From Arenicellales bacterium (GTDB taxonomy: Bacteria > Pseudomonadota > Gammaproteobacteria > Arenicellales > JAJDZL01), in the NCBI GenBank assembly GCA_965220395.1, contig CBDCPT010000004.1, positions 404,777-468,776 of the forward strand: a stretch of DNA of 64,000 nucleotides, in the 5' to 3' direction. The translations under genes and the position numbers were made by a program. The notes below the pieces were generated by a model. That model worked only from the letters and a program-made list of their open reading frames with translations, was not told the origin of the DNA and searched no databases. Positions within the stretch are counted from its first letter, which is position 1. Every line of letters begins with the position of its first letter. Below are positions 976-12,738 of this stretch, in pieces.

Positions 976-1011
976 AGACGATACCATAATTAGACGATAC
1001 CATAATTAGAC
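976..1011 (+). repeat. 16-bp tandem duplication AGACGATACCATAATT x2 (+AGAC) at the IS110 left junction
   Basis: Exact copies at 976-991 and 992-1007. Confidence 0.9.
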
Positions 1012-1098
1012 ATCATGGATTGACCTGCCCTGACTCACAACGCATAGGATATGCTTTGGGATCAGTAAATCAAACAAGCCCTTGGAGGAGGACAGGTC

Positions 1099-2235
1099 AT
1101 GGAAAAGTATAGTGCATATGTAGGTCTTGATGTACACAAGGAGACGATTGCGGTCGGCATTGCGCGTGCGGGACGCAGTCAACCGCTGTATTATGGCGAG
1201 ATTCGCAACGATCCAGCTGCAGTGGTTCGATTGGTGCGGCAGCTGCGCCGGGAAATGGGCGCTTTGACATGGTGTTACGAAGCGGGTCCGTGCGGTTACG
1301 CAGTGTATCGTCAGCTGACGGCGTTGGGCGAGCCCTGCGAGGTGGTGGCGCCGGGGTTGATATTGCGCAAGCCCGGTGAGCGAATCAAGAACGACACTCG
1401 GGATGCTTTGATGCTGGCGCGGCAACATCGCAGCGGCGATCTGTCGGCGGTGTGGGTGCCGGACGAACACCAGGAGGCGATGCGTGACCTGAGTCGTGCG
1501 CGTGAAGACATGAAAGCAATCGAGTTGAAGAGTCGGCAGCGCTTGGGCGCCTTTTTGCTGCGTTACGACCGAGTTTACCGGGAAGGTCGAAGTCGCTGGA
1601 CGCAACAGCATTTTCGCTGGCTGGAGCGGCAGCGGTTTGAACTGGAAATTCATCAGCGCGTATTTCAGGAATATGTCGACGCGGTCATCGATGCACAGCG
1701 TCGGGTGGCGGCTTTGGAGTCTGAAATGCGGGTGGCTTTGGAGAACTGGCCGTTGCGTGCGGTGGCCGAAGGTCTAATGTCGCTTCGGGGCGTGGGGATG
1801 ATCACGGCCGTGACCGTGCTGGCGGAGTTGGGAGATATCAGCCGTTTTGATAATGCCCGGCAGCTGATGTGTTTTGTGGGACTGGTTCCCGGGGAGCGTT
1901 CTTCGGGTTCCAAGCGTCGTCAGACCGGCATCACGAAAACCGGCAATGCGCATGTCCGGCGGGTGTTGGTGGAAGCCGCTTGGAGTTATCGCTTCCCGGC
2001 TCGCAAAACCGCGGTGCTGCAGCGCCGCGCGGAACGCGCTTCGCCAGCTGTACAGGCCATCGCCTGGAAGGCGCAGAAACGGCTGTGCAGCCGTTATCGA
2101 CACTTGAACCTTGGTGGCAAGGAAAAATGCAAAGTGACCACGGCCGTAGCCCGTGAACTGGTAGGCTTTGTGTGGGCGATCGCCCGTGAAGTCATGCCTG
2201 CGACACCGCCACAACATGCTCAGGTCAGCACCTGA
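1099..2235 (+). CDS. IS110-family DEDD recombinase/transposase
   Basis: YVGLDVHK, CYEAGPCG and KNDTRDA (DEDD); GLVPGERSSG serine motif; GITKTGN; RBS GGAGGAGG upstream. Confidence 0.95.
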   Translation: MEKYSAYVGLDVHKETIAVGIARAGRSQPLYYGEIRNDPAAVVRLVRQLRREMGALTWCYEAGPCGYAVYRQLTALGEPCEVVAPGLILRKPGERIKNDTRDALMLARQHRSGDLSAVWVPDEHQEAMRDLSRAREDMKAIELKSRQRLGAFLLRYDRVYREGRSRWTQQHFRWLERQRFELEIHQRVFQEYVDAVIDAQRRVAALESEMRVALENWPLRAVAEGLMSLRGVGMITAVTVLAELGDISRFDNARQLMCFVGLVPGERSSGSKRRQTGITKTGNAHVRRVLVEAAWSYRFPARKTAVLQRRAERASPAVQAIAWKAQKRLCSRYRHLNLGGKEKCKVTTAVARELVGFVWAIAREVMPATPPQHAQVST

Positions 2236-2254
2236 TCCGTTACACCCATGGTTT

Positions 2255-2460
2255 CCAAACACGAAATGCAGAAGGTCAGCGGCCGGTCCGGAGAACCCTC
2301 GAGCAATTCTAGAGGGCTCGACCCATTGGGTCGAGCAAACCGCGTAATTAGAGTGAGGCAGCTCCACGACGAAGTGAAGTCAGGCGGTAACCAACCCGCG
2401 GATATCAGTAGGATCCACCGTCGTCATAAGCCGCTGCCTTCTGCTTTCGTGTTCTGGATC
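2255..2460 (+). ncRNA. Putative bridge RNA / seekRNA of the IS110 element (ends approximate)
   Basis: Outer stem 2258-2283 pairs with 2430-2453; inner perfect hairpin 2316-2336; AGCAATTCTA (2302-2311) and TAATTAGA (2345-2352) match the two strands of the reconstructed target; ATATCAG (2402-2408) matches the right end (2506-2512). Confidence 0.8.
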
Positions 2461-2490
2461 AGGAAATGCTGTTTACAATGATAAATAAAT

Positions 2491-2513
2491 TTGACAAGTC
2501 AATCCATATCAGA
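2491..2513 (+). promoter_or_regulatory. Outward -35 box (TTGACA) forming a junction promoter on circularisation
   Basis: TTGACA (2491-2496), then exactly 17 nt to the end of the AGA core, then the left-end CATCAT (1011-1016) as -10 in the predicted circle. Confidence 0.65.
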
Positions 2514-2518
2514 ATTGC

Positions 2519-2565
2519 TGGTTGTGGTAATCGTAACAATTCGTCAAAAGGGATATTGTTGATAG
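2519..2565 (+). repeat. 47-bp direct repeat, copy 1 (copy 2 at 12580-12626)
   Basis: TGGTTGTGGTAATCGTAACAATTCGTCAAAA...TTGTTGATAG; 2 mismatches between copies. Confidence 0.85.
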
Positions 2566-12419: not shown

Positions 12420-12738
12420 ATAGCCGGATTTTTCCTGATCCCTAGTCAGGGGGTTAATTGATTGCACCAGTCGGACCAGGTGTATACGAGTTACGTAACA
12501 GGAGTACCACAGAATTAATGCTATTGGGGATGAGCAAGAACGTTGCGAATAGAATGAGTTCCCTCTTACCCTCCCCCTATGGTTGTGGTAATCGTAACAA
12601 TTCGTCAAAAAGGAAATTGTTGATAGAAAACTTGATGACATCGAATACCGTACAAAAGCCTGTTCAAATGAAGAAGAGGCAAAAAGACAAGAACGAGTAT
12701 TGCGCAAGAACAAGAAGGCCTACATATTTCCAACTTAG
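12420..12738 (+). pseudogene. Degraded small gene, GIY-YIG-like
   Basis: IAPVGPGVYELRN..GMSKNVANRM continues after a frameshift as IEYRTKACSNEEEAKRQERVL..YIFPT*; stops upstream. Confidence 0.4.
12580..12626 (+). repeat. 47-bp direct repeat, copy 2
   Basis: Matches 2519-2565 with 2 mismatches. Confidence 0.85.

Follow-up and report, generated by a model that had tools for sequence, protein, structure and literature searches.

How does a bacterial insertion sequence decide where to insert, and can that decision be read from the DNA of a single copy? The question is raised by the element at 1010-2512 of a 64,000-nt stretch of DNA from an Arenicellales bacterium (contig CBDCPT010000004.1, 404,777-468,776, forward strand), which we call the window and whose positions serve as coordinates throughout. 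From the letters of the non-coding region behind its transposase gene, the original prediction had claimed an RNA of the bridge or seekRNA kind whose guide loops match the insertion site of the element itself. We consider it very likely that 1010-2512 is an IS1111-type element of the IS110 family with a two-loop RNA, predicted to be such a bridge RNA or seekRNA. The element is accordingly predicted to choose its target by RNA-DNA pairing, and we infer that the label of an intact RNA-guided recombinase, given to it at the outset, would suit it. The principle behind the prediction holds: two loop segments are complementary to both target strands and covary with them in dozens of homologues.

The evidence begins with two short matches. 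The sequence TAATTAGA at 2345-2352, which equals left target arm plus core, recurs at the left junction (1003-1010), and its RNA form, UAAUU-AG-A, is a predicted partner of the target's bottom strand. The sequence AGCAATTCTA at 2302-2311 is the reverse complement of TAGAATTGCT, that is, of the core and the right flank. The perfect hairpin GCTCGACCC-ATT-GGGTCGAGC lies at 2316-2336 as predicted, and folding pairs approximately 2256-2283 with 2430-2457, which reproduces the long outer stem. Each match alone is short, and both could be put down to chance in a GC-rich structured region. When 5,000 dinucleotide-preserving shuffles of 2236-2496 were scored against the reconstructed empty site, 233 contained a sense match of at least 8 nt and 16 an antisense match of at least 10, while none contained both. 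Further, the matches flank one internal loop, which is the variable part of a conserved structure, and the family-wide covariation described below was reached in 0 of 10,000 permutations. Coincidence is, in our judgement, next to impossible.

The non-coding region is strongly structured. Folding was proposed as a check in the original prediction; the fold of 2236-2515 has an energy of -97.6 kcal/mol, compared with -73.6 +/- 4.85 for 200 shuffles, none of which was as good (z = -4.95). An alignment of this region from 42 different homologues yields, with RNAalifold, a consensus of 41 pairs, of which 25 have compensatory changes; in the closing stem, all 16 of 16 pairs show them, with changes on both sides. 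On this structure 93.7% of alignment cells are paired, compared with 83.8% when partners are shuffled (0 of 500 reach the observed value) and 38-48% after a shift of partners by 1-3 columns. Frequent G-U pairs make the structure compatible with the + strand alone. The 76-nt stretch 2349-2424 remains 80-89% identical among elements whose transposase DNA is only about 65-67% identical. The non-coding end thus carries a structured RNA with compensatory changes, as bridge RNAs and seekRNAs do; no Rfam family matched in a scan of 900-2700 at E values up to 1. Among the homologues, the variable nucleotides of the first module are exactly the two sides of its internal loop. The 5' side consists of six to seven free positions followed by a conserved CU-A, the 3' side of four to five free positions followed by a conserved U-AG-AG.

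If these free positions are guides, they should follow the DNA beside each element. The 80 loci that we found in genome contigs include 57 with RNA and right end scorable, which reduce to 44 unique guide-flank pairs; L021, which has no CU anchor, was left out, leaving 43. The 5' guide matches the right flank at a mean of 4.35 of 6 positions, as compared with 1.95 in cross-family pairs. Two pairs match at one position, four at two, one at three, 14 at four, 14 at five and eight at all six. With one row per guide (28 guides) the mean is 4.57 of 6 against 1.99 +/- 0.23 permuted, and for the 3' guide and the left flank (22 guides) 3.18 of 5 against 1.76 +/- 0.18; in both cases 0 of 10,000 permutations reach the observed value. 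A second set came from an independent metagenome scan for the left-end motif, which gave 119 stretches with 20 unique pairs and 12 distinct guides. Here the 5' guide fits the right flank at 5.08 of 6 positions, as opposed to 2.56 +/- 0.48 permuted (again 0 of 10,000), and the position next to the T (-4) follows the guide in 18 of 21 pairs, counted by hand. Covariation of the guides with the flanks of homologues, the second check proposed, is therefore seen in two independent homologue sets. From both sets together, we read recognition as spanning 5-7 nt of the right target half and 1-5 nt of the left one: a strong right-half guide and a short left-half one. With 7 right and 5 left nucleotides, the readable target of the window element is among the longest in the set, and its 5-nt left match is unusually long for the family.

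The same structure might be read as a cis-acting element of the mRNA, such as a terminator, a stabiliser or a translational control, with the protein alone reading the target and the loop matches as by-products. It does lie directly behind the stop codon, and a separate promoter was not found in 950-2600. This reading fails, however, to predict that unpaired loop nucleotides covary with DNA outside the element, as they do in two independent sets, or that a second loop copies the element's own ends. Related IS1111 elements, moreover, are described as requiring their RNA in trans for movement (PMC11187229). We regard a purely cis-acting role as very unlikely.

The empty site, previously reconstructed by joining the flanks, can be seen directly. 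The sequence CCATAATT-AGA-ATTGCTG runs uninterrupted through one contig from each of two public runs, belonging to two studies (X1 and X2). These contigs join window position 991 to 2511 and skip 1,519 bases, with three ambiguous letters (AGA) at the joint and 38 letters on the shorter side; loose contig ends in the two runs diverge past 2520. The joined contigs read ...ACGATACCATAATT-AGA-ATTGCTGG..., with a 16-mer in single copy that is duplicated in the window, and the 1,519 skipped bases are the 1,503 of the element plus the 16 of the duplicated unit. Because only AGA is ambiguous at the joint, there is no target duplication beyond the shared core. This is the mode of insertion expected in the IS110 family, with a short shared core and AG present at both junctions. 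The target TAATT-AG-AATTGCT is thus found uninterrupted in public reads. As to the core, AG precedes the left end in 101-103 of 103 unique left junctions in metagenome contigs, and T stands at -3 in 98 of 103. The AG of the proposed AGA core holds at both junctions and in homologues; its third A does not, and from the letters of these sites we read it as a coincidence of the window's own site, the shared core being AG (T-AG).

The empty contigs also bear on the proposal that AGAAYTGCTG is the true right terminus and that the first loop recognizes the donor rather than the target. In its favour, all seven right ends of the clade have identical or almost identical letters in the ten positions after CATATC, and unrelated DNA follows. 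The empty-site contigs nevertheless keep AGAATTGCTG joined to CCATAATT in the absence of the element, the bases after CATATC-AG differ in other families and track the guide of each family, and the genome has 70 occurrences of AGAAYTGCTG that lack the element. We hold such a terminus to be extremely improbable. The genome contains no perfect unoccupied target: a search allowing up to two mismatches gave 16 matches, the best with one mismatch at C1:1836714. No assembled relative was found with an empty site either; the right flank is present in one of 40 relatives, and that genome carries the element as well. Other element ends that abut AGAACTGCTG (C1:300574, 733844, 12455, 688959) proved to be nested repeats of other families, unlinked to this element.

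The ends of the element are fixed by three facts: the limits of the match to a second copy, the end motifs common to the family and the empty-site joint. The second copy (L008, in a sister genome) matches the window at 1004-2521 only, with unrelated DNA beyond. In homologues, the left end reads AG-ACAT(C/T/A) followed by ATGxATTGAC, and the right end reads TTGACA.GTCAAxxCATATC-AG; outside these motifs the sequence varies from family to family. The hallmarks of IS1111 elements are subterminal repeats with extensions of 7 (or 6) bp on the left and 3 bp on the right, and a long downstream non-coding region (PMC11187229). All of them are present here. The inverted repeats bracket the transposase gene and are perfect over 10 bp (13 of 15 if extended), within the 7-17 bp of the group definition, which are usually 11-13. 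With the core assigned to the left side, their extensions are asymmetric: AGACATC (left) and ATC (right). The left end (1010-1098) has 89 nt, whereas the right end (2236-2512), the 3' non-coding region, has 277.

The gene product fits the IS110 family. It contains the Pfam domains PF01548 (DEDD_Tnp_IS110, RuvC-like, N-terminal; 2.8e-13) and PF02371 (Transposase_20, C-terminal; 1e-25), and it scores 268 bits, with a cut-off of 140, against NCBIfam NF033542, whose name, "IS110 family RNA-guided transposase", confirms that the class of system was already known. Residues 261-270, GLVPGERSSG, agree with the IS1111 transposase pattern GL-P----S(T)G (PMC11187229). The nearest solved structures are those of the ISCro4 transposase (9t56) and the IS621 transposase (8wt6; E 1e-8), with the likeness mainly in the C-terminal domain. 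D11, E61 and D99/D102 align with acidic residues of ISCro4 and are likely to be catalytic, in an N-terminal stretch that scores only 10 bits. The closest named relatives are ISSfr2 (52% identity) and ISSso6 (46.5%), and the best match from a cultured relative or plasmid is at 58%, in Cupriavidus.

A second loop, absent from the original prediction, would serve the donor. Its 3' side, AUAUCAG in the RNA, repeats the right end with its core and is shared by 37 of the 42 homologues in the alignment. The 5' side, which has GUC at its end, matches the left end at 4.68 of 7 positions over 22 distinct pairs, against 3.84 +/- 0.14 permuted (0 of 10,000). Left ends and loops change together by class: ACATC occurs with AAGTC or ATGTC, ACCTT with AGGAC, and AGAAG with TTCTC. 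The RNA thus has, as expected of bridge RNAs and seekRNAs, a second loop complementary to the joined ends of the element.

How specific is the clade to which the element belongs? Six other right ends were examined, five in the same genome and one in the sister genome, and insertions with the same non-coding region in unrelated targets, which would speak against guidance, were looked for and not found: all six continue into AG-AAYTGC[T/C]G. The five in the same genome are remnants, cut at five different 5' points; each keeps the right end, four have lost the target loop, and all continue into AG-AACTGCTG or AG-AATTGCCG and then unrelated DNA, while L008 continues into AG-AATTGCTGG. The remnant at C1:1550850 pairs the guide AGCAGUU with the flank AACTGCT, compared with AGCAAUU and AATTGCT in the window, a compensatory pair; in L008, AGCAGUU faces AATTGCT, which makes a G-T wobble. 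The flanks on the left side are not alike: the window has CATAATT, L008 has TGAATTC, L010 has TCAATTA and a contig of run X19 has AACCGTT. With the right flanks kept and the left ones changed, the specificity of the clade is effectively T?-AG-AAYTGCT, mainly its right half. Of the readable target originally proposed, the right half is common to the clade and stands, and the left half does not extend to the other insertions. One-sided matches are termed half-match recombination in two preprints (10.64898/2026.08.31.748434, 10.64898/2026.08.14.744561). We also considered the remnants as products of the recombinase. Their left borders were checked for the AG core or sequence resembling the left target, and only C4:1435246 has TCAG; we read them as ordinary deletions.

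From work on IS621 and ISEc11, the following course of events may be imagined. Cleavage of the transposase transcript would release the RNA, which would associate with a tetramer of the recombinase. The element would excise as a circle with the junction ...CATATC-AG-ACATC... (...GTCAATCCATATC-AG-ACATCATGGATTGAC...), with this junction held by the donor loop and T-AG-AAYTGCT by the target loop. Through an exchange of strands at the AG core, the element would then be inserted without target duplication. In the joined ends, TTGACA stands 17 nt before the CATCAT of the left end, and it is possible that it completes a promoter at the circle junction, like the one reported for ISEc11 (PMC11187229). 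In a scan of 950-2600 for promoters and terminators the + strand yielded none; a single promoter-like hit on the opposite strand (2334-2306), with 1.1 expected, is attributable to chance. Contigs of two metatranscriptome runs labelled sponge metagenome (X18 and X19) cover 2273-2432 at a depth of 11.1 and 2186-2511 at 9.6. Depth over the transposase gene in the same runs is 2-8, and parts of the element are without cover. This is a weak hint of transcription.

Several observations weigh against the reading as a guided IS1111-type element, or against parts of it. Firstly, not every guide fits: 7 of the 43 scored genomic pairs match at three or fewer of six positions; L009, at the same site as the window element, has the guide ATTTATC, which mismatches that site; the site of L027 fits the guide of L070 from the same genome and not its own; and the guides of L067 and L079 fit their own sites poorly. 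On the left, the flanks of L008 and L010 misfit the guide in register, and the metagenome left flanks are marginal over the 4 nt beyond T-AG, with 428 of 10,000 permutations reaching the observed value. In the donor loop, the complementarity of the 5' side to the left end is partial and its exact register tentative. Secondly, the element is assigned to the IS1111 group by its organisation and not by a tree; the protein has 378 aa instead of the 330-350 stated for the family (PMC11187229), and it shares 27% identity over 64% of its length with that of IS4321/IS5075. Thirdly, the integrated state has no sigma-70-like promoter on the + strand of 950-2600. The contigs from RNA libraries may derive from DNA, cannot give transcription, ends or strand, and carry the guide variant of the sister genome, not that of the window. 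Finally, a single full copy stands beside five truncated right ends, and no second full-length copy was found in the genome; the lineage may be dying out here.

The last point leads to a variant in which the element is as described, but this copy is an immobile resident relic whose guide-flank match records only its last insertion. Apart from the copy numbers, it is favoured by a remnant that is cut by another repeated element and by the lack of a perfect second target in the genome (best one mismatch, C1:1836714). The insertion is, besides, not recent, because it is common to a sister genome at about 95% identity. On the other side, the reading frame is open over 378 aa with its motifs present, and both ends and both repeats are intact. 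The guides still fit the flanks perfectly, although the orthologous copy has drifted, and occupied and empty alleles occur together in two public runs. We take immobility to be possible but rather unlikely. The perfect match of the guides to their own flanks, a match that ISEc11 needed for its movement (PMC11187229), leads us to suggest that the window copy is likely still able to move.

The left flank and the orthologous copy add a possible history. The 16-bp unit ACGATACCATAATTAG, whose duplication was likewise absent from the original prediction, is perfectly repeated and ends in the core AG; it is single in L009 and in the empty-site contigs. Each unit is bounded by AG-AC, in which AG equals the core and AC the opening two bases of the left end. 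The duplication could have arisen by replication slippage on this 4-bp repeat, or it could have been left behind when a circle cut out at a look-alike left end went back into an empty target; sequence alone does not separate the two. The orthologous copy in the sister genome (L009, 2657-2861) differs from the window element at 74 of 1,503 positions. Nine differences are non-coding, and five of these nine fall within 12 guide nucleotides (2303, 2304, 2305, 2308, 2349). Its guides read ATTTATC-CT and TAATA-AG, against AGCAATT-CT and TAATT-AG in the window, and the same variant letters appear in contigs from two RNA libraries. Judging from these substitutions, either guides drift fastest after a copy has become fixed, or they undergo retargeting. 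The new target predicted from the L009 guides has 24 near-matches in that genome, as compared with 21 for a control pattern, and is not enriched. It is conceivable, although we would put it as doubtful, that the locus records both the rewriting of guides in place and a slip of the element boundary, two steps in the evolution of RNA-guided insertion sequences. For the slip, the recombinase would once have used the look-alike left end AG-ACGAT, 16 bp upstream; a circle excised with 16 bp of flank would have been put back into an empty copy of the same target.

How does the element compare with characterised systems? ISEc11, ISPa11, ISKpn4 and ISPst6 (Siddiquee et al. 2024, PMC11187229) were compared by their published description, not by sequence. 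As described there, IS1111 seekRNA elements share with the present one a DEDD transposase with the GL-P----S(T)G motif, repeats with 7- and 3-bp extensions and a long downstream non-coding region. In both, complementarity to the top strand is found 5' of complementarity to the bottom strand, an order opposite to that of the IS110 type; the matches overlap at the insertion point, without target duplication; and there is no promoter beyond a possible one at the circle junction. The perfect repeat is slightly shorter here (10 bp, or 13 of 15, against the usual 11-13 bp; PMC11187229). Unlike in those elements, the predicted RNA is closed by an outer stem of about 24 bp and a distinct donor-matching loop is readable.

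The bridge RNA of IS621, as described (Durrant et al. 2024, PMC11208160; Hiraizumi et al. 2024, PMC11208158), has likewise two internal loops, of which the 5' one is for the target and the 3' one for the donor, each reading one strand on either side of a 2-nt core, and its recombinase belongs to the same Pfam families. It differs in that the IS621 RNA occupies the left end, upstream of the gene, with repeats of 2-3 bp (PMC11208160), whereas here the RNA is downstream and the repeats are longer. The core in our element is AG on the gene strand, the guides are shorter and lopsided (6-7 nt right, 1-5 nt left), and sequence likeness is confined to the C-terminal domain. IS4321/IS5075, IS1111-family members whose targets are the ends of Tn21-type transposons (literature cited in PMC11208160), share the IS110-family annotation and IS1111-type organisation but are distant in protein sequence, as given above. 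ISPpu9 with its Ssr9 resembles the element in having an RNA gene behind the transposase gene and solo right-hand copies elsewhere in the genome (PMC12288879). The five solo right ends here, in contrast, look like decay and not like a mobile module, and a true tandem array was seen only in another genome, L079. There, at L079:2583-3925, a 335-bp unit of gene 3' end, RNA module and right end is repeated 4.0 times in perfect tandem (100% matches); each unit starts at AG. The array looks like amplification of the RNA module alone and recalls the RNA-only circles of ISPpu9.

Table 1. Features of the element and its target in the window, and remnants elsewhere in the genome.
Feature	Position	Strand	Remarks
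Left target flank, tandem copies of ACGATACCATAATTAG	978-993, 994-1009	+	2 exact copies; 0.02 expected
Left target half and core, TAATT-AG	1003-1009	+	Last 7 nt of the left flank
Core AG, left copy	1008-1009	+	Preceded by target T at 1007
Left extension, AG+ACATC	1008-1014	+	7 bp, core counted on the left
Insertion sequence	1010-2512	+	1,503 bp; ACATC... to ...CATATC-AG, right core copy included
Left subterminal inverted repeat, ATGGATTGAC	1015-1024	+	ATGxATTGAC conserved across homologues
DEDD transposase/recombinase gene	1099-2235	+	Intact open reading frame, 378 aa
Predicted bridge/seek RNA	2256-2457	+	Closing stem encloses two internal-loop modules
Closing stem	2256-2279 with 2434-2457	+	Roughly 24 bp
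Putative target-binding module	2290-2365	+	Stems GGAG/CUCC and CCUCG/UGAGG around internal loop; inner hairpin 2316-2336
5' guide, AGCAATT-CT-A	2302-2311	+	Complementary to top strand T-AG-AATTGCT (core and right flank)
3' guide, TAATT-AG-A	2345-2352	+	Identical to top strand, left flank and core
Putative donor-binding module	2365-2424	+	Stem CACGACG/CGUCGU, internal loop, inner hairpin 2384-2399
Donor loop, 5' side, TGAAGTC	2375-2381	+	Partly complementary to G+ACATCA of the left end
Donor loop, 3' side, ATATCAG	2402-2408	+	Identical to right end and core
TTGACA in the right end	2491-2496	+	TTGAC conserved before right repeat in homologues; possible -35
Right subterminal inverted repeat, GTCAATCCAT	2498-2507	+	Inverted copy of ATGGATTGAC
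Right extension, ATC	2508-2510	+	3 bp; followed by core AG, 2511-2512
Right target half, AATTGCTG	2513-2520	+	Same or near-same 8-mer behind all 7 clade right ends examined
Remnant	C1:1550850-1551478		Keeps last third of gene and whole RNA; preceded/cut by another multi-copy repeat
Remnants	C4:1435246-1435386, C1:571180-571318		About 140 nt kept in each
Remnants	C3:179523-179556, C1:1507466-1507489		34 nt and 24 nt; right ends only

The surroundings contain traces of other mobile DNA. A DDE transposase gene of another family (DDE_Tnp_1_4) occupies 2-904 on the - strand and ends about 100 bp from the insertion site. It matches profile positions 157-417 of 435 only and is thus without its N-terminal third; no close paralogue of it was found in the genome. 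Just right of the insertion site, the 47-nt stretch 2519-2565 recurs 10 kb downstream at 12580-12626 with 96% identity, and the pair is also present in the sister genome G023. The genome is overall very rich in insertion sequences. At least eight copies of another, distant IS110-family element (protein identity 25%) are nested in other repeats (G000, C4:509397-510146, C1:605518-606267 and C3:244151-244900 among them), unlinked to the window element. Among the homologues, seven loci from several unrelated genomes (L013, L016, L019, L029, L030, L044 and L071) have nearly the same right flank, AG-GAG(G/C/T)CTGTCGGACTT; a conserved repeat, or one end of a different mobile element, is their probable target.

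What, then, does the locus add? The seekRNAs of IS1111 and IS110 elements (PMC11187229) and the bridge RNAs of IS621 (PMC11208160) have been described, and bridge RNAs were predicted in the right end of 93% of IS1111 elements (PMC11208160). Principle, organisation and natural retargeting are already in print, and the element is a new, ordinary member of the known class. In the literature on that class we found no experiments on its lineage, which was not itself searched for. Among the labels of the contig records with these 80 loci are Gammaproteobacteria, Nitrospirota, Latescibacterota and Bryobacterales, which points to a lineage widespread in environmental genomes. The element is a well-documented natural example of a bridge RNA or seekRNA system, with exact ends, a core, a verified empty site and readable target and donor loops, and the aligned homologues, diverse and more than 40 in number, reveal the loop positions at which variation is allowed. 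Its sequence lies far from the tested proteins of the IS4321 type and of IS621. Because short, lopsided guides are combined here with a closed RNA and a distant sequence, it could interest those who search for programmable recombinases. For annotation, an RNA gene that present Rfam models miss should be assigned to the 3' region of elements of this kind.

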